Positions 1 to 53,264 of a DNA stretch of 53,264 bases are shown in pieces. This DNA comes from a virus (Duplodnaviria > Caudoviricetes): IMG/VR virus record IMGVR_UViG_3300032315_000109, positions 1 to 53,264 of that record. One strand, written 5' to 3'. Within the stretch, counting starts at the first letter, position 1. Each line of letters opens with the position of its first letter. Both the position numbers and the translations under genes were made by a program. The notes under the pieces are model-generated. The model searched no databases and had not been told where the DNA came from. It was given only the letters and a program-made list of their open reading frames with translations.

Positions 1-14
1 CCAGTTGTTGATCC
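1..14. repeat. Terminal direct overlap (circular assembly), copy 1
   Basis: CCAGTTGTTGATCC at 1-14 is identical to 53251-53264, and the reading frame is continuous across the join. Confidence 0.85.
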
Positions 15-3000
15 ATTGCCAAAGCTTTCGGAAGAAGCTGTAATTGCGGCAACTGATTTAGGTCGTAAATATGCTAGACCTATGCAAGATTTGTACAATT
101 ATGGATCAAGAAGAGCGCATCAGTTTTTTACTAATGGACAAAATTATGCTCGTAATGATGGCTCTATTCCAGTAACAGATGGTTCTACCACTAGTACAAC
201 AACACCAACTCCAGCGCCTACGTTTAATTTAAATAATAAATTATCAGGTGACTTTCTTTCAGTAAAGAAATTTTTACGACAACGTGGTTTTTCTGAAGGC
301 GGTATAGCTCATATGCAAGAAGGTGGAGTTCCACCAGAATCAGTCGTGCGTTTAAAGCCTATTCGTTCTTCTGACTCAGTTAACCGCGCTCGTGCTTTCT
401 TTGGTCAAGGCATGGGTATGTCTATTGGTGATGAAGCAGAAGCTTTGTACCGTAAATACTTAACTGATGAAGGTTCTAACAAGAGCTATGGTCAATTGGT
501 TGATGAAATTCGTAGCGATTACCGTCGATTCTCTGAAGAGAACCCAGAGCAGCAAATGGCTTTTGAACTTTCTGGTGGTATTGCTCCTACTGTAGGTGCA
601 ATGTTGTTGCCCGGAGGTCAGGCTGCGGCTGGAGCTAATACTGCTCGTATGGCTAACATGTTCACAAAAACTCCATTGCGTCGTGCTGCAACAGGTGCTG
701 GCGCTTCTGGTGCTGTATCAGGATTTAATGCAGGTGAAGATACATTGTCTAATCGTTTAGGCAGTGCTACCGAAAGCGGATTAACTAGTACAGTGCTAGG
801 CCCTGTCGTTGGTAAGGCTGGTCAACTTGCCCTGCGTGGTGGTAAGGGTGCTATAAACCTTGCTAAGCGCCCATTCCAGATTGGTGACAATTATCTTGAG
901 CAGCAAGCTATGGACAAGGTATTGGCAAAGATGCGTCAAGATGGAATAACACCTCGCGAAGCTGTTGGTCGTATTGCTAATGATCGTGGATACAATCCAA
1001 CTACTAGACCTGTAGGAACTCGCCCTGACACTCGCCTGATGGATGTCTCACAGGGATTAACTGACTTGGCTGAAACCGTAACGCAGAGACCCGGAGGCGG
1101 TCGTACTGCTATGGTTGAGGACATGAAGAATCGTGTTCGTGGCACTAAGGGCAGAGTCACACAAATGGCTAATGAGGCTCTAGCAGGTAACAAGGCTTAC
1201 TTCAAAGAAGTATCCGACCTGACAAAAGACTTGCGCTCAAAGGCTGATACTGCTTACCAAGCTGCATATTCTTTTGGTGATGTATCTGACCCAAGAATTA
1301 TGGGTATTTTAGATACGCCAGAGTTTAAACGTGCTTATCAAGAAATAATGAAGACTAATCAAATTAAGAAGGCTAATGCGGTTGCATTAGGTGAAGACCC
1401 TTCACAGTTTGATATGAAGCAGATTTATCGAGTCAAGCCCGGACAAAATCCTGACAGCCCTATTCTTGATTTAGAGTTGACTGATGTTCCTGATGTTAGA
1501 ACTTTGGACAACATCAAGCAAGGCATTGATACAGTTATTGCTAAAGGGTTTGCAAGCGATGACAAGATTAGCCGAGATGCAGCTAATGCTCTCAAGCAAC
1601 TGAAGAACACTTATGTAAGCATTATTGATGAGGCAGTACCTGCTTATAAAGTTGCGCGCAATCAATACAAGGGCGACATTGAGATTATTGAGGCATTAGA
1701 AACTGGTCGTAATCAGTATTCAAAAATGCTACCTGATGAAGCAATGCAGTATGTTTCTACATTGAGTGATGCTGAAAAACAGGCTTTACGTGTTGGCTAT
1801 GCTCAAAACTTTGCTACCAAGATTGGTGAGTCTAAGAACTCAATCAATGCTGCTGAGCAGATAATTGGTGCTGAGAATGAGCGTTTACGTTTAAGAGCAT
1901 TGTTTAACTCTGATGCTGAATACAAAGTATTTGAAAATGCTTTGATGGCTGAGTCTCGCAACTTTAGAAATGCAGGTCAAGTGGTAGCAAATTCTGCTAC
2001 CGAGCGCCGTGCTATGGGTCGTAAAGAGTTTGAAAACAATGATGCTGTTGGTGAAATACTTGATGCTACTCGCGGTGGTGTAACTAGCACTGTACTTAGC
2101 ATTTTGCGTAAAGCTCCATCACTGTTTAAGAATGAAAAAATAGCTGAGAAAGTAAGCAAGATTCTTTCTACTGGCACACCACAAGAAATTAATTCCATTC
2201 TAAAGCAAATGGAAAAACGTGCTGTTGGCTTCTCTAAGTCTGCAAAGACTAATGAGCGTGTTGGTTATGCAGGTGCTAAGGGTACTGGCAGGGCATCAGG
2301 TCAAACGCCTATTGCAGCTTCATATGAAGAGCCAGCTCCAGAGGAACTTCCATCAGCAATTGATCCAAGCTCAGAGGGTGCATTAGACCCGTCAGAAAGT
2401 GTTGTTTTTGATTCTCCAGAGATGGAACAACAAGACATGGAAGAGCCAGAGCAGGTAGAAGTTCCAATGGAAATGCAAAGATATAGGGGTGGTGCTGTAC
2501 GTGGTTATGCTGAGGGTGGTTCTGCTAGAGAAGCTAATTATGTTTCAGACATTTTAGACAGAATGGATGTTAGTGCTTATGCAGATCAAATGCAGCAAGG
2601 TAAAAACAGAAGTAAGTTTATGATGGGTAGGCTTGGATATCGTCAACCACTTGCAGATAACAGACAATTATCTGGTGGCTTATCTGGTAATGCTGTTGAA
2701 TATGAGGGTGAGGATAATCGAGGCAATAAATATCAGGGCAGCAAATCTGGTTTGACAGGCGCTGATTTAGCTTATGAAGATGAAAAGAACCGTCTAGCTG
2801 TTAAGTATGCAACTCCACAAGGAGAGAATAAATTATCATTTCAAGCTTTAGAATATGCTCGTAAGCTTGCAAATAACAAAGGAAATGTTGGTGGTCGTTA
2901 TTCTAGAATTTCTCCAGAAGGCATGCGCCGTGATCCACAGGTTGAAGTTTTCTATAACAGACAATTTAAAAATGGCGGAGCAGTAAATCAAAAAGCTATG

Positions 3001-3030
3001 CGTGGTGTAATGAAAAAAATGAGAGGTTGA
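1..3030 (+). CDS. C-terminal part of giant internal virion/ejection polyprotein (continues from 51472 across the origin; about 1602 aa in total)
   Basis: Frame 1 is open from position 1 (PVVDPLPKLS) and in frame with the ORF starting at 51472. Helical Ala/Gly-rich ejection-protein-like core with several xxGG motifs and a C-terminal beta-rich module. Confidence 0.8.
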   Translation, partial: PVVDPLPKLSEEAVIAATDLGRKYARPMQDLYNYGSRRAHQFFTNGQNYARNDGSIPVTDGSTTSTTTPTPAPTFNLNNKLSGDFLSVKKFLRQRGFSEGGIAHMQEGGVPPESVVRLKPIRSSDSVNRARAFFGQGMGMSIGDEAEALYRKYLTDEGSNKSYGQLVDEIRSDYRRFSEENPEQQMAFELSGGIAPTVGAMLLPGGQAAAGANTARMANMFTKTPLRRAATGAGASGAVSGFNAGEDTLSNRLGSATESGLTSTVLGPVVGKAGQLALRGGKGAINLAKRPFQIGDNYLEQQAMDKVLAKMRQDGITPREAVGRIANDRGYNPTTRPVGTRPDTRLMDVSQGLTDLAETVTQRPGGGRTAMVEDMKNRVRGTKGRVTQMANEALAGNKAYFKEVSDLTKDLRSKADTAYQAAYSFGDVSDPRIMGILDTPEFKRAYQEIMKTNQIKKANAVALGEDPSQFDMKQIYRVKPGQNPDSPILDLELTDVPDVRTLDNIKQGIDTVIAKGFASDDKISRDAANALKQLKNTYVSIIDEAVPAYKVARNQYKGDIEIIEALETGRNQYSKMLPDEAMQYVSTLSDAEKQALRVGYAQNFATKIGESKNSINAAEQIIGAENERLRLRALFNSDAEYKVFENALMAESRNFRNAGQVVANSATERRAMGRKEFENNDAVGEILDATRGGVTSTVLSILRKAPSLFKNEKIAEKVSKILSTGTPQEINSILKQMEKRAVGFSKSAKTNERVGYAGAKGTGRASGQTPIAASYEEPAPEELPSAIDPSSEGALDPSESVVFDSPEMEQQDMEEPEQVEVPMEMQRYRGGAVRGYAEGGSAREANYVSDILDRMDVSAYADQMQQGKNRSKFMMGRLGYRQPLADNRQLSGGLSGNAVEYEGEDNRGNKYQGSKSGLTGADLAYEDEKNRLAVKYATPQGENKLSFQALEYARKLANNKGNVGGRYSRISPEGMRRDPQVEVFYNRQFKNGGAVNQKAMRGVMKKMRG

Positions 3031-3031
3031 T

Positions 3032-6000
3032 ATGGGTAAGAAAAAGCTTTTAACGGAAGCGCTTGAAGGAGCATTGTCAAAGCTTCCAAAAGGTTCTTTA
3101 TCCTCTCAAGCAAAAGTTGCGCGCGAAATGGAACAGGAAGCTGCTGATCAAGCAGCTCTTTATACAGCGCAACCAATAAGCAATAAAACAGGTAAGGATG
3201 CAATAGCGCAAGCTAAGCAGACATTATCTGCGCCAAAATCCAAGAAGCCATTGACTAAAGAGCAATTCCAAAACCAATACGTTCAGCACATTGATCTCAG
3301 AGGTAGAGAAGGTAATGCCGAAGAAAATGCTAAGTCAATAATGGAGGGTGGGTTTAGACGTGGTGTAAATGCTAATGCATACACTCCATTTAGCGGTCTA
3401 CCTCATAGAGATGTTGTGAGTGCAAAGTTCCAACCTCAAGAGGGTGATTTTGTTTACTTAGCTCCAAAGGGGCAGTGGGTAACAACTCCTAATGGTGTGA
3501 AAATCAAAGAAGGATTTAAACCAGAGCCTCATGAGGTTATCAGAGTTACTGATCCTAATATGTCAATGTATGAGCATTACTTAGCTAACTTTGACAAACC
3601 ACAAAAAGGCGGTAAGGAAAAGTTCCTTGAGCCAAGTATGGTTAAGCAACGCCTGTATCATGGAACTGGCTCTGATATTTCAGAATTTAGACCAAATTCA
3701 TTTTTTAGTGATGACCCAAAAATTGCTGCAATGTATGCAAAGTCTCAACATAGAGCAGTAGAAGGTAGTGGGCCAAACATTATTCCTGTTGACGTTCAAT
3801 TTGAAAACCCTTATTTCCACGACGAAAATCAAGCAAGGAAACAAGGAAAAAACTTTGCACAAATAATTGCACCTGATGCTCCAGCAAAGGGAAGGCTTCA
3901 AGAGGCATTAAGAATTTTAAGAGAAAAAGGTCACGACAGCGTTATTCTTCAAAATTTTGATGATATTGGTGGTCGTCAAAATCAATATATCGCTCTTGAT
4001 CCAAGCAAAGTTAAGTCAGCCATAGGTAATCGTGGCACATATGATCTTAATGATGAAGACATAACTAAAGCTAAAGGCGGTCTTGTGCATCTCGCTAAAG
4101 GTGGTGTATTGCACCTTGCTAAAGGCAGCCAAGAATTCCCTGTTGGTAAGTATTACCGTGATGAAGCAACTATAGGCCCACTAAAGCCAGTTCGCCCAGT
4201 AGCTTCTTTTGCTGGTGATTTTTTGCAAGGAACTCACGACTTTGTTTCTAAACCATTTGGATATCCAAATCCACCAATGGAAATGTTTTCAGAGTTAATG
4301 ACTGTACCAGCATGGGCAAGAACTCTAAAAGATTATGGTAACGGTTTTTCATTAACTACAGGTGCTGGTCAAACAACAAAACTTACACCAGATGCAGAAG
4401 AAGCTGCATTAACCTTAGTGCCTTTAATTGGCCCTGCCGCTAAAACTTTATCTAAGGTAGGTAGAAAAGTAATTAAAGAAGGCGCTCCATATGCTGCTAA
4501 TCAAGCAGTGAATCTGATGGAGAAGTATGGTGTTAGTCCGACCATGAATGTGATTAAGCCTAAAGGCGGCAATTGGTCAACTGAGAGTAGTGCTATAAAT
4601 AGTTTAAAAATTAAAAGACCTGCTGACAAATCAGACCCTGTTAAAGTTTTAAGAGATCATGATAAATATTACAATCCTTCATTACTAAAAACATTTACAG
4701 AAGAAGGTCTAACTAATGCAGCAAATAAAAGACAAAAACTTGTTAATCAAGTAAATGTAAATGAGTGGATTGATAAAAAATTAAACAATTACCTAAAAAA
4801 TGAAATGGCAACACCTGAAGACTCAGTTCGTTTAGGTATAGAGCGTAGATATGAAGAAGCTCAAAAAATAAAAGCCACTAATGATGCAAAGCTCGCAAGA
4901 ATGCGAGATGCAATAGATAAGCGCAAGGCTGAAGGTAAAGACACAACTTTATCTGAGAGAGATTATGAAGCGGCAGTTGAAAAAGCTAATGAAGAAAATA
5001 TTTTTGCAAATAGAAGTATTTCTCATATGACTGCGCCTGAAGAAGGTTGGAAACCTTCTTTTGGTAATAACTATGTTTCTGATGAGCTTGCTTTCAAAAG
5101 GAATACAGCAGGTTATCCAGAAGAAGGTATGGGTAAAAATGAAGCATCTAAAACATGGGAATATATTAGTGATTCTTCAATTATTCCTGTTAAAGCAGGT
5201 TCAATTCCTGATAACTCTTATTCTTTAATTAGAGACCCATGGATAACTAAAGTTGCTGAAAAAGACCCTAACACACCAATATATAATCTGGATGATGCTT
5301 GGATTAGACATGATGCTGAGTTTAGTCACATGATTGATGAGCTTCAAGAGGCTATGAGTCCTACTTCTGTGTTGCCTCAGAATTTAAGAATAAGTGAAAA
5401 AGATTTAGCAAAAATGACTGTGGATGATGTATCTGCATTGTCTGGAAAAATTAGTGCATGGCGTGACATACAAAAAGTAAAAACCAATAAAGAAATTGCT
5501 AATAACCCAGCTACTTTTACATTCAAAGAGTACACAGAAAACAATCCTAAAGGTGTTAGTTGGAAGCAGATCAAACGACCAGAAGGTTATTCTGATGAAG
5601 AAGCAGAAAAATATGTTCGTGCAGCCACTCAATATGAAGGCGACATAATGCGCCATTGCGTTGGTGGTGCTGGTCATTGTGACCCATTGCTAGATGGTGA
5701 GGTTGAGATTTATAGCTTGCGTGATGCGAAAGGTGAGCCTCATGTAACTATTGAAGTATCTGCAAAACCAGACCCAAGAGTTAAGGGTAACACTCCTGAT
5801 GATTTTTATTTATCTTTGCCAATGGAAGAAATGGCAAAAGTTCCTCCAAAACCAAGAGTTACTAATTCTTCAGATATGGAGCAAGTGTATTGGAACAGAG
5901 CAATTGTTCAATCTCCACAGTATCAAGAATGGTTGAAATCAAGACCAAGAGAAATTTTAGAAATTAAAGGTAAAGCTAATGCAAAACCTAAAGATGAATA

Positions 6001-8344
6001 CTTGCCATTCATTCAGGACTTTATTCGTTCTGGTAAATGGGGCGCTATTGGCGACATTTCTAACACTGGTCTAAGGTCAGCAAGAAGCGTTCTTGGTGAA
6101 GGTGTGGTTAATGAATTGCGTAAACGTGGTGAATATGTTCCACCAGTTATGGGATTTGATGAGGCTGTCAAGTTCCAAGAAATGTACAACCCAGAAGCAT
6201 TTAAAGGCGTTACTAGCATAGATGATTACAGAAAAGTATGGGACAAGGGCGGCATGGGAGGTGATGGCTATGCAGAGGGTGGCTTAGTTGAGGATGATAA
6301 CAACTTGATGTCATTAGTTGACGAACATTTTTTAAATCAGCCAATGGCTTTTGGTATTGGTGGTATCGCTAAAAAAATAGCTGGCAAAGCTGCAAAGAGC
6401 TTAGAGAGTCAATTAGATGACTCTGTTGAAAAACTTCTTGATGCCCATACTGCTGCAAAAGCAAAGCCAAAAGCTAAAGCTAAATCAAATCCTGATGATA
6501 AATTTTTGCCTTTAGATTTGCCTAGAGCGCGTCGTAGCAAACAGGAAATTCAAAGTGAAGCAGAACGAGTTTCCCGTCAAATAATGGGTGAGCATGTTCG
6601 TGATCCTAGAAAGCCAAATGATTCTGCAAACCTTGCTGATAGATCAATGGCAGAGGTTGAAAGATTAAAAGGAATTAATTACACCTTAGAGGACATAAAA
6701 GACCTACCAGAGCCAATTATTATTGATCCTAAATTAGGTGACATTAACATAGCCACTGTTGGTGATATTACTGTTGCTGACAAACGATTAGTTGATATGA
6801 ATGGCTACCCAATTGAGTCAGTCCAACAGGGTGGCCCGTTCTTTGGTTTGGGCAAGCTTCGCCAGATGGGTGATGAGGATTTATGGTGGGCTTCTGAACA
6901 TCAAGCGGCTAAAAACTTTCAAGCAAGAGTGGATGAGATAGCTAATTATTTTGGAGTTGATAGGTTAACAGCTCAACATTTGGCAATGGGTCAAAGAGCT
7001 AATAACTTTGCTATGCATTTTGCTGATGCCAATTTAAAAGCAATCAATACTTTCGGTGCGCCAGAAGAAGGTATTGAGGGCATGAATAAATTAATTCGTG
7101 AAGGCTACTCATTAGCAGACAAAAAAACAGGAGAACGGAAATACTTTGCATGGCCTGACTTCCCCGGAGTCGAAAACATTGATGAGGCTTATAAGTATTT
7201 TAGACAAGACCCAGAGGCGAGAAAGTGGTTTAACGACCGCATGAAAAAACCATCAGTAACAGACAAGTTTGGTCTTCCAAATGGGTTGGACATTCAATAT
7301 GCAATTAGTGATGAAGTTCTGCGCAACATGGAAAAAAATCTAACTGGTCGTTCAGTTGGAGAGGTTTATAGAGGCTCTGGATTAAAAGACACTGCCAATC
7401 ATGGGACATATGACACAGGCATCAAGGGTAGGTTTCTTGGTAGATCAAAATACCCAATACCTGTAAAACTTAGTTACTCTGATGCATATGACTACACAGC
7501 AGCTAGAAAGCGCCCAAGTGATGTAACTGGCACTTTGCAAAAAGTAGCTCCTCATCAAATTGTTGATGATCAGTATTTAAATGAAATTGGAGAGTTTAAT
7601 TACTTAATCAATAAATACACAGGCAAGCGCAAGGGTGGCTTAGTTGATGATGATGACAAAGAATTAAGCCAAGAATATTCTGCCATACAAAGATTGCTTG
7701 GCAAGTATGCATACACCTTGGACAAACATAAAAGGTACAAGAGCGAAAAATACTCTGGCAAGGATGATGAGGTTGTTTCTCGTCGCAAGCCTTTTGATGA
7801 AATGACTGTACCGATGCCCGGAGACTTTAGGGGGAACACAATCAAGACTCCTTTTGGCGAAAGGTACAAGGATGACGAGTACAAACAAAACAATATGCCA
7901 GAGACTAATGAGGATGATATTCAGCGCAAGAAGGAGCTGCGGTACTACCAGAAGGGTGGCAGAACTACTGCCAAAGGCCGTGTTGAGCGCAAAATGTATG
8001 ACCTTGATGCTAATGAGCCAAATCGCATGGGAATTGCTCCCTATGGCTTGCGATATGCCCTCTCAGCAAGAGAAATGCCACAAGCCAAGGGTAAGGGCTA
8101 TATGGGTGAAATGCGTGGCTCTGAGGGGGTTGTGACGGAATATTCTTTGGATGACATGGATTTGGGTGCTTTCCCAAGTGTTACACCTAACCAGCCAAAT
8201 GAAAACCTTGATGAAATCAATCGAGGTAAGGTAAGTCATAGCACATATCAGTTAGCAAAAAAGTATGCTGCCATGCGTAAAAAAGCTGGGAAGAGCGCAT
8301 TTGCCCAAATGGACGAATTACGCTATCCCCAGCCTCAAGATTGA
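3032..8344 (+). CDS. Large polyvalent virion protein (1770 aa) with ADP-ribosyltransferase (ART-PolyVal-like) and PcfJ-like domains
   Basis: LYHGT...FFSDD...YA...NPY...DSVI...KVKSAIGNRGTYD (ART-PolyVal pattern); EGDIMRHCVG...IYSLRD.KGEPHVTIEV...EIKGKAN (PcfJ pattern); last gene of the virion operon. Confidence 0.8.
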   Translation: MGKKKLLTEALEGALSKLPKGSLSSQAKVAREMEQEAADQAALYTAQPISNKTGKDAIAQAKQTLSAPKSKKPLTKEQFQNQYVQHIDLRGREGNAEENAKSIMEGGFRRGVNANAYTPFSGLPHRDVVSAKFQPQEGDFVYLAPKGQWVTTPNGVKIKEGFKPEPHEVIRVTDPNMSMYEHYLANFDKPQKGGKEKFLEPSMVKQRLYHGTGSDISEFRPNSFFSDDPKIAAMYAKSQHRAVEGSGPNIIPVDVQFENPYFHDENQARKQGKNFAQIIAPDAPAKGRLQEALRILREKGHDSVILQNFDDIGGRQNQYIALDPSKVKSAIGNRGTYDLNDEDITKAKGGLVHLAKGGVLHLAKGSQEFPVGKYYRDEATIGPLKPVRPVASFAGDFLQGTHDFVSKPFGYPNPPMEMFSELMTVPAWARTLKDYGNGFSLTTGAGQTTKLTPDAEEAALTLVPLIGPAAKTLSKVGRKVIKEGAPYAANQAVNLMEKYGVSPTMNVIKPKGGNWSTESSAINSLKIKRPADKSDPVKVLRDHDKYYNPSLLKTFTEEGLTNAANKRQKLVNQVNVNEWIDKKLNNYLKNEMATPEDSVRLGIERRYEEAQKIKATNDAKLARMRDAIDKRKAEGKDTTLSERDYEAAVEKANEENIFANRSISHMTAPEEGWKPSFGNNYVSDELAFKRNTAGYPEEGMGKNEASKTWEYISDSSIIPVKAGSIPDNSYSLIRDPWITKVAEKDPNTPIYNLDDAWIRHDAEFSHMIDELQEAMSPTSVLPQNLRISEKDLAKMTVDDVSALSGKISAWRDIQKVKTNKEIANNPATFTFKEYTENNPKGVSWKQIKRPEGYSDEEAEKYVRAATQYEGDIMRHCVGGAGHCDPLLDGEVEIYSLRDAKGEPHVTIEVSAKPDPRVKGNTPDDFYLSLPMEEMAKVPPKPRVTNSSDMEQVYWNRAIVQSPQYQEWLKSRPREILEIKGKANAKPKDEYLPFIQDFIRSGKWGAIGDISNTGLRSARSVLGEGVVNELRKRGEYVPPVMGFDEAVKFQEMYNPEAFKGVTSIDDYRKVWDKGGMGGDGYAEGGLVEDDNNLMSLVDEHFLNQPMAFGIGGIAKKIAGKAAKSLESQLDDSVEKLLDAHTAAKAKPKAKAKSNPDDKFLPLDLPRARRSKQEIQSEAERVSRQIMGEHVRDPRKPNDSANLADRSMAEVERLKGINYTLEDIKDLPEPIIIDPKLGDINIATVGDITVADKRLVDMNGYPIESVQQGGPFFGLGKLRQMGDEDLWWASEHQAAKNFQARVDEIANYFGVDRLTAQHLAMGQRANNFAMHFADANLKAINTFGAPEEGIEGMNKLIREGYSLADKKTGERKYFAWPDFPGVENIDEAYKYFRQDPEARKWFNDRMKKPSVTDKFGLPNGLDIQYAISDEVLRNMEKNLTGRSVGEVYRGSGLKDTANHGTYDTGIKGRFLGRSKYPIPVKLSYSDAYDYTAARKRPSDVTGTLQKVAPHQIVDDQYLNEIGEFNYLINKYTGKRKGGLVDDDDKELSQEYSAIQRLLGKYAYTLDKHKRYKSEKYSGKDDEVVSRRKPFDEMTVPMPGDFRGNTIKTPFGERYKDDEYKQNNMPETNEDDIQRKKELRYYQKGGRTTAKGRVERKMYDLDANEPNRMGIAPYGLRYALSAREMPQAKGKGYMGEMRGSEGVVTEYSLDDMDLGAFPSVTPNQPNENLDEINRGKVSHSTYQLAKKYAAMRKKAGKSAFAQMDELRYPQPQD

Positions 8345-14636: not shown

Positions 14637-14972
14637 ATGGAAGAGAGAGAGATTGATCCTCATAAAGCTGTTGACTTTCTTGTCGTTAATGGAAAGAAAG
14701 CAGGTCAAGCAAAAGCAAATAGATGGTACATGGAAGAGTATCGCAAATCACTTAAAGCTATTCTAATGAAACGCTCACATGAAAACTCAGTGAATGCGCA
14801 AGAGAGAGAAGCATATAGTCATCCAGAATTTATTGCACACCTCAAAGCTGTTGAAGAAGCAATTGAACTTGAAGAAGAGTTGCGTTGGCAAATGATTGCA
14901 GCTCAAGCACGGATAGAAGTTTGGCGTTCACAAGAAGCAACTAATAGAGTTGAAGGGAAAATGACCCTGTGA
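14637..14972 (+). CDS. Helical phage protein of unknown function
   Basis: Start placed at MEEREIDP; coiled-coil-like; 4-nt overlap with the MTase gene. Confidence 0.7.
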   Translation: MEEREIDPHKAVDFLVVNGKKAGQAKANRWYMEEYRKSLKAILMKRSHENSVNAQEREAYSHPEFIAHLKAVEEAIELEEELRWQMIAAQARIEVWRSQEATNRVEGKMTL

Positions 14973-16132
14973 AATATTTATCTGTTTGTAGTGGGATTGA
15001 GGCTGCAACTGTTGCATGGCATCCGCTCGGTTGGGAGGCTGCTGCATTCTCTGAAATTGAATCTTTCCCATCGGCTGTACTTGCACATCATTATCCAAAT
15101 GTACCCAACTTAGGGGACATGACTAAATTCAAGGAGTGGAACTTTGGAACAAATATCGATGTTTTCGTCGGAGGAACACCATGCCAGTCTTTCTCAGTCG
15201 CAGGTCTCAGAAAAGGATTGGATGACCCACGTGGCAACCTCATGCTTACCTATCTTGCCATTGCTGACAAATTTCGCCCCAAGTGGTTGGTTTGGGAAAA
15301 CGTCCCCGGAGTCCTGTCGTCTGACAACGGAAAAGATTTTGCAACCTTCCTCGGAGGGTTGGGGGAACTCGGGTATGGGTTCGCATACAGAGTTCTTGAC
15401 GCTCAATACTTCGGAGTGGCCCAAAGACGGCGTCGCGTGTTCGTTGTTGGATACCTTGGAGACTGGAGACCTGCCGCGGCGGTACTTTTTGAGCGCGACA
15501 GCTTGCAGAGGAATCCTCCGCCGAGCAGAAAAAAGAGAGAAAGAACTTCCGCCTTCTTTGAAAGCAGCCTTGCTCAATACCGCGCAGCAGACGTCGGAGG
15601 AACTCTCAAAGCAAGCGGAGGAGTTCTCGGAGGAGGAAGCGAAACTTTTCTTGCTCAACGAGTTGGATCAGGAGATCAAGGAGGAATGACCTCTGCATAC
15701 TCTATTCGTGAGGATGCTCAAGCCAACACATTCAGTGCAACAGAGTTAGAAGTAGCAACTGCATTGAAAGCGTTGCAGCCTAGTGTGCAGTCCCATCATG
15801 CACAAACTTTTGTAGCTCTTTCTCCACCAACTATAGTTCATGGCACTCAAGACCCATGCGTTTCAGATATTGCATTTGCTCAAGGCACAAATAATGGTGG
15901 GGAGAATGTCTTAATTCAATCTATGGCTGTCCGTAGACTCACGCCAATTGAATGTGAAAGGCTGCAAGGCTTTCCTGATGGCTACACAAACATCCCATGG
16001 AATAAGAAGCCTGAGTCACCTGACGGCCCAAGATACAAAGCATTGGGCAACTCTATGGCTGTGCCTGTGATGGCATGGATTGGCAAACGAATTAATCAAT
16101 ATGAACAACAAATTAACAGCAGCTCATCGTAA
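14969..16132 (+). CDS. DNA (cytosine-5) methyltransferase
   Basis: Motif I SVCSGIEA, IV GGTPCQSFS, VI WENVPG, VIII QRRRRVF, IX RLTPIECERLQGFP, X KALGNS. Confidence 0.95.
   Translation: MKYLSVCSGIEAATVAWHPLGWEAAAFSEIESFPSAVLAHHYPNVPNLGDMTKFKEWNFGTNIDVFVGGTPCQSFSVAGLRKGLDDPRGNLMLTYLAIADKFRPKWLVWENVPGVLSSDNGKDFATFLGGLGELGYGFAYRVLDAQYFGVAQRRRRVFVVGYLGDWRPAAAVLFERDSLQRNPPPSRKKRERTSAFFESSLAQYRAADVGGTLKASGGVLGGGSETFLAQRVGSGDQGGMTSAYSIREDAQANTFSATELEVATALKALQPSVQSHHAQTFVALSPPTIVHGTQDPCVSDIAFAQGTNNGGENVLIQSMAVRRLTPIECERLQGFPDGYTNIPWNKKPESPDGPRYKALGNSMAVPVMAWIGKRINQYEQQINSSSS
15144..15689 (+). CDS. Nested alternative-frame ORF, M.EcoHK31I beta-subunit-like
   Basis: 181 aa in the +1 frame inside the MTase gene; AAGGAG at 15131-15136 before TTG; SLLDTLETGDLPRRYFLSATACRGILRRAEKR motif. 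Confidence 0.65.
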   Translation: MEQISMFSSEEHHASLSQSQVSEKDWMTHVATSCLPILPLLTNFAPSGWFGKTSPESCRLTTEKILQPSSEGWGNSGMGSHTEFLTLNTSEWPKDGVACSLLDTLETGDLPRRYFLSATACRGILRRAEKREKELPPSLKAALLNTAQQTSEELSKQAEEFSEEEAKLFLLNELDQEIKEE

Positions 16133-20187: not shown

Positions 20188-20787
20188 TTGAACTTTGAAA
20201 ACCTGTTTCCTACAGCAGTTGGGCGCTTAGATTTAAATAAGCCCTTCACAAAAAAGGAAATTCAATTCATCAATGACTTGAAGCGCCGCCCAAATGTAGG
20301 CAATGAAACTTCTGAAAACAGTTACATATTCAAATCAAAAGAACTCAAGCGAGTCTCAGACTTTATAGATAAAGCTGTCAATGATTACTTTAAAAGAGTA
20401 TTCGCACCTGAAAGAAATGTCAGGCTGTATGTTACCCAATCATGGGCTAACTACAGCAAGACTGGTCAGTTCCACCACAAACACAAACACCCAAACAGCA
20501 TTGTGTCTGGAGTGCTGTATGTAAATGCAGTACCAGAGATTGATAGGATTTATTTCTACAATGACAATGAGCCAATGCTAGACATAACTACTAAAGACTG
20601 GAATGTCTGGAACTCTAAAAGTTGGTGGTTGCCTGTGGCTACAAACAACATTGTCCTTTTCCCATCAACCCTGACTCATATGGTTGAGAATGTGATCAAT
20701 GCTGATGAGAGGGTAAGCATATCGTTTAACACATTTGTTATCGGTGAGCTTGGTGAAGAGAAATCTTTGACGGAGTTAATTCTATGA
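20188..20787 (+). CDS. 2OG-Fe(II) oxygenase-like protein (TIGR02466-type)
   Basis: LFPT start, SWAN...HHKHKHPNSIVSGVLY, LFPSTLTHMV, RVSISFN. Confidence 0.85.
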   Translation: MNFENLFPTAVGRLDLNKPFTKKEIQFINDLKRRPNVGNETSENSYIFKSKELKRVSDFIDKAVNDYFKRVFAPERNVRLYVTQSWANYSKTGQFHHKHKHPNSIVSGVLYVNAVPEIDRIYFYNDNEPMLDITTKDWNVWNSKSWWLPVATNNIVLFPSTLTHMVENVINADERVSISFNTFVIGELGEEKSLTELIL

Positions 20788-27817: not shown

Positions 27818-28237
27818 ATGCTACTAGAAACACCATTAGAAATGGGATTTGAGTCAATTGAAGACGCTTTCCCGCAAGTAGACTGTGGAATTATCCCATT
27901 TGGATCACGAGTTATAGTTCAAATTCGTAGAGCAAAGTCCAAAACCAAGAGCGGTCTGTATATTCCTGAAGAGGCACGTAAGACTGAGGCTAGTAACACC
28001 CAAGTAGCTCGTGTTGTTGCGGTTGGATCGCTTGCATATCGCAATAGAAACACTATGGAGATGTGGCCTGAAGGTTCTTGGTGTGATGTAGGTGAGTTTG
28101 TGCGCACTCCAAAGTACGGTGGCGACAGATGGACAGTAAAAATTGATGACGAAGAGATTGAATTCGTTATGTTTGATGATTTAAACATCTTAGGTCGTGT
28201 AACAGGCGACCCAACAAAGATGCGAGCATTTATCTAA
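27818..28237 (+). CDS. groES: GroES-like co-chaperonin
   Basis: IIPFGSRVIV...KTKSGLYIP...ARVVAVG...VGEFV..PKYGG...DDLNILG. Confidence 0.88.
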   Translation: MLLETPLEMGFESIEDAFPQVDCGIIPFGSRVIVQIRRAKSKTKSGLYIPEEARKTEASNTQVARVVAVGSLAYRNRNTMEMWPEGSWCDVGEFVRTPKYGGDRWTVKIDDEEIEFVMFDDLNILGRVTGDPTKMRAFI

Positions 28238-38153: not shown

Positions 38154-39749
38154 ATGGGCAAAAATATTAAGTATGGTGAGTTTACTTTTAACAAGCCAAA
38201 CCCTCGTCCAGCCGTAAAAGGCTATGCATTTGGTGGTGCTACTGAACCAGTCGCCGCTCCTATGGCTGCTAAAAAGCCAATGCCAACTCCTGCTCCTCTT
38301 GACCCCGCTATGCAGCGCCAAAAAGAGAATCAAGCGGTTATTAATAAAGCAAATGCAAATCCTAATAGAAAAGGAAGCCCGCTTCTAATTGATCCAGTTG
38401 CGATAAAAGCTGCGACTGATAGGAACATGGAGATTAGGAAAGCTACTGATGCTAGACATAAAGCAGAAGCTATAGCGAATAGAATACCTCCTAGTAAAGA
38501 CCCATATTCAGCATTAAAACGTAGCATGGATGCTATACAGGATCGTAGCAGTGCGCCTATAGCAAGACAAAAAGGCGGCAAGGTTGGATTGTGGGACAAC
38601 ATCCATGCAAAAAGAGAGCGTATTAAAGAAGGCTCTGGTGAGAAAATGAGAAAAGCTGGCTCTAAAGGCGCTCCTTCTGCACAAGATTTCAAAAACTCCG
38701 CTAAAAAGATGCAAGAAGGCGGTGAGGTAAAAGGTTATGCGGCAGGTGGTATGTATGACTTTGATGATGCACCAATTCAACGAAGGAATGCCAAGGCAAA
38801 AGCTACAAAATTAAAGTTAGCTGAAGACGCAAAAAGAGAAGCTGCTGAATCTAGAAGCCGATATGAAGAAGGTCAAGGTAAGGCAAATTTACTGCCAAGC
38901 CCTGTAAGAATGAAAGAAGGTGGAGAAGTTCAGGGTTATGCGTCAGGTGGTATTTTGTCTAAAGCATTAAAAATGGTTGAAAATATGCGTGGCAGCCAAG
39001 ATAGCCAACCAACAGATACACAACCATCCTTAGTTAAAGATAATTTAAGTAGTGCAATGCAAAAAATTCAACCAAAAATTGGTTTGATTTCTTCTGCGCT
39101 TAGGGATTCCAATCCACAGCCAGCTCAATCCCAAAATATGGGTAATATAACTAATGCATTGCAAAGATTTTCTCCGAGTTTTTCACAAAATCGTGGTTTT
39201 ATTGGAAGGGCGCTTGCTACCAATCCGCAGCCAGCTCCAGCTCAAAATTCTAGTAATGTAACTAGAGCTTTACAAAGTATTTCCCCAAAATTTTCAAAAG
39301 TTCGTGGTTTGATTGGAAGATCACTTCCTTCGAATACTGGGTTAAAAGAAGGTGGTAGTGTTTCAAAAGATAATCCTAAAGCATCAAAAAATGCAAAATC
39401 TATGGAAAGCTCAGCTAAAGACAAGGCTCAAGACAAGGCAATGATCAAAAAAGCTATGAAGCAGCATGATCAGCAAGAGCATAAAGGTGGTAAAGGTACT
39501 GTTTTAGAGCTTAAAAAAGGCGGCAAAGCTCCAGTTAAAGGTGTAAAGCTAGTTGGCATGAAGCGAGAGCCTGAAGCTGTTATAAAGAAAGAAATATCTT
39601 TGCTTAAAAAGGCTGGCGCTCCTGCAAAGATGATTAAGCATGAAGAAATTGAAGCTATGTCTCCAATGTCATCCATGGGTGGTATGCGCAAAGGTGGGTC
39701 TGCTATGAAAAAAGGTGTTCCAACCTTTAATCGCACCCCTAAATGCTAA
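38154..39749 (+). CDS. Basic low-complexity modular virion protein with 9-10 xxGG motifs
   Basis: YAFGG, RQKGG, MQEGG, YAAGG, MKEGG, YASGG, LKEGG, LKKGG, MRKGG; AAGGA RBS. Confidence 0.8.
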   Translation: MGKNIKYGEFTFNKPNPRPAVKGYAFGGATEPVAAPMAAKKPMPTPAPLDPAMQRQKENQAVINKANANPNRKGSPLLIDPVAIKAATDRNMEIRKATDARHKAEAIANRIPPSKDPYSALKRSMDAIQDRSSAPIARQKGGKVGLWDNIHAKRERIKEGSGEKMRKAGSKGAPSAQDFKNSAKKMQEGGEVKGYAAGGMYDFDDAPIQRRNAKAKATKLKLAEDAKREAAESRSRYEEGQGKANLLPSPVRMKEGGEVQGYASGGILSKALKMVENMRGSQDSQPTDTQPSLVKDNLSSAMQKIQPKIGLISSALRDSNPQPAQSQNMGNITNALQRFSPSFSQNRGFIGRALATNPQPAPAQNSSNVTRALQSISPKFSKVRGLIGRSLPSNTGLKEGGSVSKDNPKASKNAKSMESSAKDKAQDKAMIKKAMKQHDQQEHKGGKGTVLELKKGGKAPVKGVKLVGMKREPEAVIKKEISLLKKAGAPAKMIKHEEIEAMSPMSSMGGMRKGGSAMKKGVPTFNRTPKC

Positions 39750-50453: not shown

Positions 50454-51452
50454 ATGGCAAATGTTCTTGACAAGGTAACTGACTTTCTTTTTGGAGGTAC
50501 TACACCTCCATCAGTTAAGACTTATGGAACTACAACTACCACAACACCTGCTTGGTATAACGACTACACACAGGCTTTAATTGGTAAGGCTAATGCAATT
50601 GCATCAGAACCATATCAAGTTTACGATGGAAGTCGTATTGCTGGGTTTACTGATAATCAAAATTTGGCATTTGCATTAACACCTGAAGCTGCTAGTTCTT
50701 ATCTTCCATATATGAATCAAGCAAGTAATATATATGACAAGCTTGGAAATACTAGTGCATTAAGCAAAGCTCAGCCTTATTTAAACAATTCAGCTCAAAC
50801 TAGTTATGCAAATGTACAAAATTACATGAACCCATACATGGATTCGGTTACAAATCGAATCGGTCAAATGGCTCAGCGTAATTTGTCTGAAAACATTATT
50901 CCAACAATTCAGAATCAGTTCATTGGTGGTGGATCGTTTGGTGGTAGCCGTAGCGGTACAGCTATGGGTAAAGCAATGCGTGATATATCTGCTGATACTT
51001 TAGCGCAACAAACTAGCGCATTAGCTAGTGGCTACAATCAAGCAATGGCTCAAAGCCAAGCTGATTTAACAAGACAAGGACAACTAGGTCAAATAACTGG
51101 GGCTATATCTCAAGCAGACCTTACTAGACAACTTCAACTTGGTCAGAATGTTGGCGCTCTTGGTGCATTGGCGCAGTCACTTGGTCTTAATGAGGCTGCT
51201 GCATTGGAAGCTGTTGGTCTTACACAGCAAAATCAAAATCAGAGAAACCTTGATTTGGCTTACAAGAATTTTGCTGATCAAAGAGATTATCCAAGAGAGA
51301 ATATTTCATTCTTAAATAATGCTATTCGTGGCTTATCTATCCCTACTACATCAACTGCAACTGGAGTAGGCCCTGCATCTTCCGTAGGCCCATCTGGATT
51401 ATCACAGCTTGCTCAGGCTGGTGCGCTTATATATGGTATTGGTAAGAAGTAA
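50454..51452 (+). CDS. DNA ejection / internal virion protein
   Basis: YMNPYMDSV, GSFGGSR, Gln/Gly-rich helical repeats. Confidence 0.7.
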   Translation: MANVLDKVTDFLFGGTTPPSVKTYGTTTTTTPAWYNDYTQALIGKANAIASEPYQVYDGSRIAGFTDNQNLAFALTPEAASSYLPYMNQASNIYDKLGNTSALSKAQPYLNNSAQTSYANVQNYMNPYMDSVTNRIGQMAQRNLSENIIPTIQNQFIGGGSFGGSRSGTAMGKAMRDISADTLAQQTSALASGYNQAMAQSQADLTRQGQLGQITGAISQADLTRQLQLGQNVGALGALAQSLGLNEAAALEAVGLTQQNQNQRNLDLAYKNFADQRDYPRENISFLNNAIRGLSIPTTSTATGVGPASSVGPSGLSQLAQAGALIYGIGKK

Positions 51453-51471: not shown

Positions 51472-53264
51472 ATGGCTTATCAACCTCGTAGAAATAATAA
51501 CTTGGCAGAGTTTGATTTTGAGAGCTTAATTTCTCCTCAACAGGATGAAAATACTAAGCTACTTCAAAGCGACATGCCAACTGATAATGATCTATTAGCC
51601 CTTAATCAAAGGGCTGAAGTTGCTGAAGAACCAAATGCTGATTTAATAAGCCAACAAACTTATGTAAGCAATCCAACATTTGCTAATAAGGCTAGTCAAG
51701 CTGGCGAGCGTTATTTATCGCAAAAGAAAATAGAAAGAAGCACAACTGCTGAGATTTTAAAAAAAGCACAAGAGGCTTTACTTGCTAGATCAGAAGAAGG
51801 CTGGACTCGTGGTGATTATTTTAGACTTGCTGCTGCTCTTGGTAAGCCAACAAGGTTTGGTACATTTGGTGAAGAATTAGGTAATGCTGCTGAAGTTATG
51901 GCAAGTGTTAGTGATCGTCAAACAAAAGCTAAGCAAGACTATGAAGCACTGAAATTAAAATACCAATTACAAAATGCAGCTCAACCTGCTGAAGACGCTG
52001 AGCAAGAATTTGGTGTATATACCAAACTTGCAACTGGTAGAGGTCAATCTGCATCTAGACTTCGCCAAATGCAAATAGAGCGTGATGCGCTACCAATGAA
52101 TGACCCAGCTCGTGCTGAGTTGGATGCCGCTATTCAGTTATACACTACTGAAAAGAAAACAAAAGCTAATACCCCTTCTGGTCAATTTGTTGAATTAGTA
52201 AACATAGCTAATGATTCTAGTCAGCCACAAGCAGTAAGAGAAGCGGCTGCTGCAAAGATAAGAAAAGAAACATACATTCCTCCTCAGAAAGCACCAAAGG
52301 GTGAGCCGCCTCCAGTAGTTAATTTAACTGCTGCTGAAAACACTGGTATGCGTTTAGGTGTTCCTGTCATGATTGACAGCCCATTTTCTAATGTTGATCA
52401 AAAAACTCAACAGCAATTAGTATTGCAAGCAAGCAAACGTGCGCAAGCTGAAATAGCAAAAGTTGAAGAGGCAGCAGACAAAGCTCAATTCTCTCAGCAA
52501 AAGATGGCGCGTTTTCTTAAACTAAATAAAGAAAACCCAACCAACCCTCTTACTGGAAAACTACCTTCCTTCAGAGCTGCTGCTCAAGAAATGGATAACA
52601 TTACTGCTGAGCTTGCACCTGAAAAAAGATTGGAAGGAACAGGTTCAGTTTCTGACTTTGATGCTAAGCAGTTGCTTAAAGCGGTTGTTAACCCAAGCAA
52701 TTCTTATGAGGCTAACAAAAATATTGGCTTGGCATGGGATGCTTATGCAAAAACAATAAAAGAGAAAAGTAATTTCTTGCGTAACTACTTTACTACCAAT
52801 AAAACTTTGGATGGCTCTAGTCAGGCATGGATGCGCTACATGAATGCGAATCCTATTTTTGATCCAAAGCAGCCCGGTACTTTTGCACCTAACAAAAATC
52901 GTAAGACTTACAAAGACTTTTTCTATCCACCAAAGCCACAGGGTAAAGCTGAGGGTGGCATAATTAATTATTCTGATGGTGGGCAAGCTTCTACTCAACA
53001 CAGCAATTACTATGAACAGAATCAGCCAGATTTATCTGTGTTGATGAATAAGTATGCTAAAGGTGGAGAAGTAAAAAATAAATTGTATGACAAGTATGGT
53101 CGTCAAAAATTAGGTTGGGGTGGTAAAGGCACAGCCATAGCATACGCACAAGCAAACCCTACTGCACCAGCTCAAACTGGTGGCGGTTTTATGGGTGACT
53201 TTACTACAAAACTTGTATCTACTATAAAAGATGCACTACCAAAAAATGATCCAGTTGTTGATCC
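51472..53264 (+). CDS. N-terminal part of the giant internal virion polyprotein (runs off the end, continues at 1..3030)
   Basis: ATG at 51472 (MAYQPRRNNN...) after AAGG; no stop before the window end; GSVSDFD and KAEGG/YSDGG/YAKGG motifs. Confidence 0.8.
   Translation, partial: MAYQPRRNNNLAEFDFESLISPQQDENTKLLQSDMPTDNDLLALNQRAEVAEEPNADLISQQTYVSNPTFANKASQAGERYLSQKKIERSTTAEILKKAQEALLARSEEGWTRGDYFRLAAALGKPTRFGTFGEELGNAAEVMASVSDRQTKAKQDYEALKLKYQLQNAAQPAEDAEQEFGVYTKLATGRGQSASRLRQMQIERDALPMNDPARAELDAAIQLYTTEKKTKANTPSGQFVELVNIANDSSQPQAVREAAAAKIRKETYIPPQKAPKGEPPPVVNLTAAENTGMRLGVPVMIDSPFSNVDQKTQQQLVLQASKRAQAEIAKVEEAADKAQFSQQKMARFLKLNKENPTNPLTGKLPSFRAAAQEMDNITAELAPEKRLEGTGSVSDFDAKQLLKAVVNPSNSYEANKNIGLAWDAYAKTIKEKSNFLRNYFTTNKTLDGSSQAWMRYMNANPIFDPKQPGTFAPNKNRKTYKDFFYPPKPQGKAEGGIINYSDGGQASTQHSNYYEQNQPDLSVLMNKYAKGGEVKNKLYDKYGRQKLGWGGKGTAIAYAQANPTAPAQTGGGFMGDFTTKLVSTIKDALPKNDPVVD
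53251..53264. repeat. Terminal direct overlap, copy 2
   Basis: Identical to 1-14. Confidence 0.85.

Follow-up and report, generated by a model that had tools for sequence, protein, structure and literature searches.

Here we describe the C-terminal module of gpA, a very large protein encoded across the two ends of a 53,264-nucleotide virus record (Duplodnaviria; Caudoviricetes; IMG/VR record IMGVR_UViG_3300032315_000109), which was analysed over its whole length and is referred to below as the window. gpA is probably injected with the DNA by a short-tailed phage. An earlier analysis (the original prediction) had proposed that the module is a cryptic outer-membrane beta-barrel, delivered by the virion, that would be released by cleavage after a Phe residue (F|KNGG) and would then be recognised by BAM, the machinery that assembles beta-barrels, through the C-terminal Phe so exposed. 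We find that the module is too polar for an outer-membrane barrel and is complete without cleavage. Structure prediction supports a discrete all-beta domain of eight up-and-down strands, and the reading that we favour, and hold to be moderately probable, is that the module is a soluble, basic beta-domain that is carried on an acidic linker and acts at the end of gpA, an ejection protein, to dock or anchor it.

The module and the gene that carries it

The module occupies positions 2521..2967 of the window on the + strand, where 149 in-frame codons, with those for YAEGG directly 5' and those for KNGG directly 3', specify residues S841 to F989 of an open reading frame (ORF) of 1009 residues at 1..3030 (stop codon at 3028-3030). 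This frame, on the + strand, is the C-terminal part of gpA, stop codon included. The N-terminal part (51472..53264, + strand) reaches the end of the record and resumes at base 1; the first 14 nucleotides of the record (1-14) are the same as the last 14 (53251-53264), and the ORF that starts at 51472 stays in-frame across the junction. The unit that follows from the end repeat is 53,250 bp long, and the record, which IMG/VR lists as 'linear' and to which CheckV assigns a completeness of 94%, is a circularly permuted, podovirus-like genome of roughly 53.25 kb. Since the ends share both the repeat and the reading frame, gpA is one protein of 1602 residues, with the module at residues 1434-1582, and the homologue in locus L001 (L001 1042-6810) is a single continuous ORF of 1922 residues that runs across the corresponding junction point.

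The module is single-copy in the record, and no ORF of at least 60 residues lies on the opposite strand within 2521-2967. Its DNA is 92.3% identical to that of L001; of the 37 differences, 22 are at the third position of a codon, in keeping with a coding region under constraint. The coordinates and frame given in the original prediction are thus confirmed.

Within gpA the module is tethered by an acidic, Pro-rich linker of 57 residues (2308..2478, + strand; net charge -17, 30% Asp plus Glu, 16% Pro), which is followed by a double linker motif, RYRGGAVRGYAEGG (2479..2520, + strand). The module itself has an isoelectric point of 9.3 and is predicted to consist of one helix and eight beta-strands. 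Its last residue, the Phe, opens a conserved terminal element of the form F-x-x-G-G-x-V (here F-K-N-G-G-A-V; 2965..2985, + strand), beyond which lies an optional basic tail, NQKAMRGVMKKMRG (2986..3027, + strand), with a helix predicted at low confidence; the 20 residues past the Phe, KNGGAV and tail together, carry a net charge of +6. No Pfam or NCBIfam family, no named PHROG domain and no recognised effector or peptidase domain was found in gpA, and phrog_5880, a family of unknown function, matches residues 134-765 of its 1009-residue part.

Relatives and conservation

When 1.84 billion representatives were searched in full with HMMER at a cut-off of E<=1e-3, six matches were returned, of which four are real; P0006, with ankyrin repeats, and P0007, a repetitive cuticle-like protein, proved to be spurious repeat matches when the sequences were inspected, and were dropped. 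Word-indexed searches with a profile of seven sequences (alignment A2) gave 17 longer proteins and four of similar length. One viral and one metagenome contig carrying the module were recovered, the single metagenome scan yielding L002 only. The module is thus known from 22 proteins or loci besides the window, and the final alignment (A3) has 23 rows, several of which are close relatives and not independent. The module is the C-terminal domain in every full-length case, in proteins of about 1440-1920 residues.

Eleven columns of A3 are invariant (G4, G5, G41, R42, G44, G85, D87, Y90, Y101, G129 and F154) and a further 26 are nearly so, among relatives down to 22% identity. The last of these invariant residues, F154, is the Phe before KNGG, whose conservation the original prediction had named in advance as its test; all 23 rows keep it.

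We found no cultured phage with the module. A tblastn search of the module against 50,697 phage records gave no match at E<=1, and the A2 profile, run against the complete records of Rhizobium phage RHph_I1_23 and Caulobacter phage RW, had none at that value, an empty answer that by the tool's own warning is uninformative. Queries with P0023 and P0022 against genome contigs and viral contigs likewise returned no relative. When the 1009-residue part of gpA was searched by tblastn against the same 50,697 records, the sole match was to RHph_I1_23 (24.8% identity), in a hypothetical protein of 702 residues that belongs to the structural block and is without the module.

Predicted fold and nearest shapes

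AlphaFold2 returned the same helix and eight strands from two runs that differed in alignment and boundaries, with a predicted local distance difference test (pLDDT) score of 76 from seven sequences and of 86.9 from 23 sequences and tighter boundaries (predicted template modelling score 0.72; 105 of 160 residues at or above 90). In the model, whose residue 1 is residue 836 of the 1009-residue frame, a helix at 7-18 precedes up-and-down strands at 20-31, 34-50, 53-69, 75-91, 95-102, 111-120, 127-135 and 141-151. All eight of the strand-like segments listed in the original prediction fall within these strands. Strands 3 and 4 are each 17 residues long and their tip is probably a protruding hairpin, as modelled. 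Natural length variants map to this tip, which is therefore taken to be dispensable for the fold: P0021 lacks 23 residues and P0005 lacks nine. At the DNA level the corresponding region is 2680-2760 of the window, where the 23-residue deletion of P0021 and the nine-residue deletion of P0005 and L002 take off the tip of the hairpin.

It could be argued that the barrel-like model is an artefact of predicting a sequence rich in Gly, Tyr, Arg and Asn, and that the region is a partly disordered or differently folded spacer. The alignment is indeed shallow, with many close relatives among its 23 rows, one of the five models has a pLDDT of 59.7, no solved fold was matched at E<=1e-3 and the atlas recognition value, 1637, falls below the mark of 2300. 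Nevertheless, confidence rose with alignment depth while the eight strands remained the same, the invariant and nearly invariant columns are numerous for such divergent relatives, and the natural deletions fall in a predicted hairpin. We therefore regard an artefact as quite unlikely.

The nearest shapes were sought with an exhaustive aligner (VIA), for which the three best Z values were 8.8, 8.6 and 8.5; according to the tool's note, a Z of 7-8 is the usual best for a model without a true match. Its matches include the first half of OmpF (134 residues, root-mean-square deviation 4.7, Z 8.2), TamA (105 residues, root-mean-square deviation 3.6, Z 8.4), KdgM (Z 8.5), Omp33 and several autotransporters. 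The barrels among them, which we take to have 10 to 26 strands, were always matched as part of the wall. OmpA, OmpX, OmpW and PagP were absent among the best 50 of each of the three VIA lists. Because the matches are to parts of walls only, Z lies near the level seen without a true match and none of these four proteins is listed, the model is best described as a curved up-and-down sheet with the shape of a barrel wall. A closed, OmpX-like barrel was set aside as the default reading on the same ground, that no eight-stranded outer-membrane protein is among the best 50 matches listed, which is a weak one, absence from a list not being exclusion. Foldseek matched retinol-binding protein at E 0.025-0.044 with template modelling scores of about 0.15-0.25, a lipocalin-type superposition that is absent among the VIA matches listed. 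The A2 profile found nothing below E 0.4 among the sequences of the PDB, where an arginine decarboxylase stood at that value.

Polarity of the strands

Membrane barrels were compared with the module by a score for which octanol-scale hydrophobicity was averaged over five alternating residues at a time, and the eight highest-scoring segments without overlap were then combined into one mean; OmpX, OmpW and the OmpA barrel of E. coli MG1655 served as controls. The module reached a mean of 0.10, with one of its eight segments at or above 0.3, and five relatives reached 0.11-0.19 (one or two of eight segments), against 0.56 for OmpX (seven of eight), 0.75 for OmpW (eight of eight) and 0.78 for the OmpA barrel (eight of eight). 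Among 124 other 149-residue segments from the phage's own proteins, 81% outscore the module. In a shuffling control the module scored 0.13 and its shuffled copies 0.13 +/- 0.09, with 48% of 500 shuffles reaching or exceeding the module's value, whereas OmpX and OmpA stood above their own shuffles, 0.5% and 0% of which reached them. By the alternate-face test there is thus no lipid-facing hydrophobic belt in the module or in the five relatives, and the description of its strands as amphipathic, in the sense required for a membrane, is not confirmed.

Asp, Glu, Lys and Arg together make up 28% of the module's residues. Placed on the predicted strands, those of its hydrophobic positions that are conserved line up as a stripe, about three rungs deep on each strand, with invariant Gly, Arg and Asp on the opposite face; judged by the usual length of outer-membrane strands, three rungs would suffice for the core of a protein and not for a bilayer. 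No Pfam outer-membrane family was found at E<=10 in any of the seven A2 members scanned, the only matches being DUF5643 (E 0.039) and DUF1233 (E 0.051), in one member each. A Sec signal peptide is likewise missing, the module being internal to gpA with the acidic linker ahead of it; delivery by ejection is a conceivable route. The original prediction of an outer-membrane barrel therefore survives in its eight strands, in the barrel-wall shape of its nearest structural neighbours and in a weak proximity in language-model space, and fails for want of a belt and of a family match.

The wall-like shape admits a further possibility, namely that the module is an open half-barrel, several copies of which would come together once ejected to build a larger beta-barrel or tube, either as a conduit across the periplasm or outer membrane or with an edge strand that would pair with a host barrel such as BamA. 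The strands superpose best on contiguous parts of larger barrels (the first half of OmpF, TamA and KdgM), presumably of 12 to 24 strands, and not on eight-stranded ones. Ejection proteins act as oligomers in phage DEV, according to the available text of a preprint (PMC10925440), and protein antibiotics are described as delivering a C-terminal strand to strand 1 of BamA in what is available of another (bioRxiv 10.64898/2026.09.25.754295). However, all of the Z values lie within the range common for models without a true match, an oligomer that spans the membrane would need the alternating hydrophobic strands that are absent here, and for outer-membrane-pore ejection proteins transmembrane alpha-helices have been argued in the former preprint (PMC10925440), in contrast to the all-beta and polar character of the module. 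A complex prediction for two module copies (from A3) scored 0.29 against a mark of 0.42, which gives no verdict and is not used as evidence. We consider such a half-barrel unlikely. The narrower proposal that a polar half-barrel, shaped like an outer-membrane protein, pairs by beta-augmentation with itself or with BamA through its Phe-ended edge strand, thereby opening or anchoring a conduit for the DNA at the outer membrane, strikes us as quite unlikely.

The terminal Phe and the F-x-x-G-G-x-V element

The invariant Phe closes the last strand, which carries V, V, Y and F at positions -8, -6, -4 and 0. Position -2 is Lys or Arg in all 23 relatives, and position -5 is Phe or Tyr in 22 and Arg in one. 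The beta-signal consensus is given as zeta-x-G-x-x-[aromatic/hydrophobic]-x-[aromatic/hydrophobic] in the available part of the preprint on BamA-directed antibiotics (bioRxiv 10.64898/2026.09.25.754295), and the control outer-membrane proteins end in ...GYRF. With a basic residue at -2 and an aromatic residue, not Gly, at -5, the module does not fit the beta-signal, and the Phe is unlikely to be the cryptic BAM signal for which it had been taken.

The sequence also does not stop at the Phe: x-x-G-G-x-V continues past it in 22 of 23 relatives. Seven proteins, on separate contigs of up to 55 kb, end at GG-x-V itself, two residues past GG, with termini such as ...FRNGGAV or ...GGKV, and five more end one to five residues after it; in the DNA of L002 the stop codon directly follows GGRVK. 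In 10 of the 23 relatives GG-x-V is followed by a basic tail of 8-14 residues, whereas in 12 such a tail is absent or very short. As so many proteins end right at F-x-x-G-G-x-V, the element is a native C-terminus in many of these phages and not a site that hides one. The original prediction proposed checking whether homologues end in Y-x-K/R-x-F just before xxGG or a stop codon: K/R-x-F is kept throughout, xxGG comes next in 22 of 23, and a free end at the Phe is recorded for P0023 only.

These observations bear directly on the reading in which a monomeric eight-stranded outer-membrane barrel, delivered by the virion and released at F|KNGG, is inserted by BAM through its exposed Phe. Its attractions are the strand number and the outer-membrane barrel walls that are the nearest solved shapes, the invariant Phe with its alternating V, V, Y and F, the recorded end of P0023, the likelihood that the hosts are Gram-negative, and the view, found in the available text of PMC8954989, that ejection proteins pass through the tail unfolded and refold in the envelope. 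These are outweighed by the missing belt, the departure from the beta-signal at -2 and -5, the lack of any outer-membrane family match and the absence of OmpA, OmpX, OmpW and PagP from the best 50 of the three VIA lists. Moreover, almost all relatives run on past the Phe, and in the seven that stop at GG-x-V cleavage would remove six residues only. The ORFs scanned, which are not all of those in the genome, yielded no protease family, and we see no sign that the F|K bond would be scissile. We consider this reading highly improbable.

Adenain- and ubiquitin-like cleavage follows GG|X. A cut of this type was also entertained and set aside: no protease was found in the set of ORFs covered, and cleavage after the terminal GG would leave a mere dipeptide in seven relatives.

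The element recurs outside the module. In its strict form, [FYMKRH]-x-x-G-G-x-[VIAL], it occurs seven times in gpA (4.4 per 1000 residues), four times in gpB, the product of the next gene (2.3 per 1000), and 12 times in 37 other ORFs (1.1 per 1000), where five of the 12 copies sit in one basic protein of 531 residues (38154-39749). A further module of about 75 residues, absent from the window, is inserted in L001, P0001 and P0002 exactly at the 2479..2520 motif, between two copies of the element; because it is present or absent precisely between them, the element marks module boundaries. Its role may be that of a linker, of a packaging tag or of a cleavage site. The element is often doubled (for example MQEGGxVxGYAxGG) and recurs in three proteins of the virion block.

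Genome context and phage relatives

The structural block ends with three genes in the order ejection-family gene, gpA, gpB. Directly upstream of gpA lies the gene for a DNA ejection protein of 332 residues (50454..51452, + strand; phrog_4287, E 3e-23), so that gpA, within the late structural block, stands beside an ejection-protein gene, as would be expected of an ejection protein. Short-tailed phages, T7 and P22 among them, keep the genes for their internal virion (ejection) proteins in this place and order (reviewed in PMC8954989). The gene for gpB (1770 residues; 3032..8344, + strand) starts 1 nucleotide past the gpA stop codon. gpB has an ART-PolyVal (ADP-ribosyltransferase) domain at residues 207-336 (E 4.3e-12) and a weak PcfJ-like match near a Cys/His-rich stretch at residues 867-912, on which grounds it is read as a polyvalent protein; it is probably an injected, effector-bearing protein.

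Further upstream are genes for the large terminase, a portal of 854 residues, a GroES-like protein, an HK97-type capsid, an SU10-type adaptor and tail-fibre-like proteins. Identity to the proteins of Caulobacter phages RW, KcrB, RLK and GB2A is 82% for the capsid and 54% for the portal, with more distant matches to Roseobacter phages CRP-901/902 and Pelagibacter phages HTVC023P/027P. Judged by its sequence, the phage is podovirus-like and related to the groups of Caulobacter phage RW, HTVC023P and CRP-901, and matches to phages of these three genera make a Gram-negative host likely. At the positions of gpA and gpB, the closest cultured relatives (Caulobacter phage RW; L008, 15946-20433) have much smaller proteins, of 435 and 722 residues, in which the module was not matched. 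It seems that only the uncultured clade has the giant modular forms.

A probable soluble docking module of an ejection protein

In the arrangement that we favour, the module would fold on its own as a short helix followed by an eight-stranded up-and-down sheet with the curvature of a barrel wall, its strands 3 and 4 extended into a long polar hairpin. Its core would be the hydrophobic stripe, some three residues deep on each strand, leaving the remaining surface polar and basic. The domain would hang on the acidic linker of 57 residues, presumed disordered, and would be closed off by the recurring F/Y-x-x-G-G-x-V element, with a basic amphipathic tail added in about half of the relatives. The invariant Phe would then be a core residue that ends the last strand, not a hidden C-terminus, and the GG element a linker or cap that also marks the boundaries of modules. 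Inside the head, the module would attach the end of gpA to DNA or to some other component of the core; once ejected, it would tie that end to an anionic component of the envelope and would not span the outer membrane. This assignment of gpA to the virion, to ejection and to docking is one that we infer.

A number of observations weigh against the soluble docking module, several of them structural. No clear solved match was found, Foldseek returning nothing at E<=1e-3 from the PDB (both models) or BFVD (first model), and about 40 of the best 50 VIA matches in each wide search are transmembrane beta-barrels. For a protein language model the nearest neighbours are unnamed viral clusters (0.93), and the only named ones are SlipAM, OMP_b-brl and BBP2_2 (0.88-0.89; 116-131 of 256 features shared), a similarity that by the tool's notes is a lead only. 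The hydrophobicity test, based on the Wimley-White octanol scale, is home-made and might miss a membrane belt that is short or oligomeric. P0023, a distant relative of 132 residues, is recorded as ending at the Phe itself (...LRFNKRF), as the original prediction would have it. This protein aligns with an hhalign probability of 96.7% over the first five strands, and MAFFT places its end on F154. It is shorter than the module, with about six strands, and may be truncated; two contigs are listed for its cluster, the longest of 1690 bp. Finally, gene order is what places gpA in virions, and a docking partner or ligand is hypothetical.

Relation to known systems

gpA resembles the ejection proteins of podoviruses (T7 gp14/gp15/gp16, P22 gp7/gp16/gp20, and those of DEV and N4) in the place of its gene beside an ejection-family gene and in being very large and fast-evolving, with an enzyme-bearing giant protein following it, and differs from those of T7, P22, DEV and N4 in that no sequence match to them was found. 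With OmpX, the N-terminal domain of OmpA and OmpW (Pfam OMP_b-brl) the module shares eight up-and-down strands, a length of about 150 residues, a composition rich in Gly, Tyr, Arg and Asn and an aromatic residue at the end of the last strand. Unlike them, it has no signal peptide, no belt and no hidden Markov model match, ends in R/K-x-F instead of Y-R-F and does not lie at a free C-terminus. Phage lambda Lom is another protein that we take to be a small outer-membrane beta-barrel.

A likeness to polyvalent proteins (Iyer et al., 2017; PMC5512222) lies in the ART-PolyVal domain of gpB and in the make-up of gpA and gpB as strings of modules, whole units of which come and go; for polyvalent proteins, processing by embedded peptidases is described in the text available, whereas gpA has no recognised effector or peptidase domain. 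The words 'beta-barrel' and 'linker' have no occurrence in the main text of that article in the form available. Like the module, lectin-like bacteriocins arrive from outside the cell and end in a short aromatic beta-strand; their peptides carry an [aromatic/hydrophobic]-x-[aromatic/hydrophobic] dyad, as far as described in the accessible part of the source (bioRxiv 10.64898/2026.09.25.754295), whereas the Y-x-K/R-x-F of the module places a basic residue at the dyad position.

In the literature on ejection proteins, polyvalent proteins, BamA and the beta-signal, and related phages, we found no account of ejection proteins that have a beta-barrel-type module, and two articles on relatives of the phage (PMC9599517 and PMC10149686) contain none of the terms 'internal virion', 'ejection' and 'internal core'. 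The module, a well-defined and confidently predicted domain without a counterpart in Pfam, PHROG, NCBIfam or the PDB, represents a new domain family in proteins of a known kind. A matching unnamed domain may appear in the domain tables of Iyer et al., although the Pfam scan should have picked up the published LPD families.

The way in which short-tailed phages get through the outer membrane is known for only a few model phages, in which the task is ascribed to helical proteins. The module forms the extreme end of an ejection-type protein, and the clade that has it is related to abundant aquatic phages of Alphaproteobacteria. As a soluble docking domain it would be a modest addition, providing a new domain family and a marker for the clade. 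Were it instead active in membranes, it would count as the first beta-barrel component known from an ejectosome, and were the half-barrel conduit true, beta-strands would do what alpha-helices do in every ejectosome described. The F/Y-x-x-G-G-x-V element, which bounds modules in three proteins of this phage, provides a separate, testable lead on the building, packaging or processing of such proteins.

Other features of the genome

The basic, low-complexity protein of 531 residues that carries five GG elements (38154..39749, + strand) contains a stretch of 43 residues (143-185, ...GGKVGLWDNIHAKRER...) that matches phrog_16028, a family of 50 positions, at E 4.7e-20. After one of its GG copies it also holds ...GYASGGILSKALKMVENMRG, a helix-like sequence that resembles the C-terminal tail of gpA. 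The GroES-like co-chaperonin (Cpn10, E 6.9e-10) is encoded at 27818-28237, between the portal and capsid genes, and Caulobacter phage RW has a co-chaperonin in the same place (gp090c). The early region encodes a C-5 cytosine DNA methylase (14969-16132, E 1.4e-56) and a 2OG-Fe(II) oxygenase (20188-20787, E 2.5e-19), both of which may be involved in modification of the DNA.

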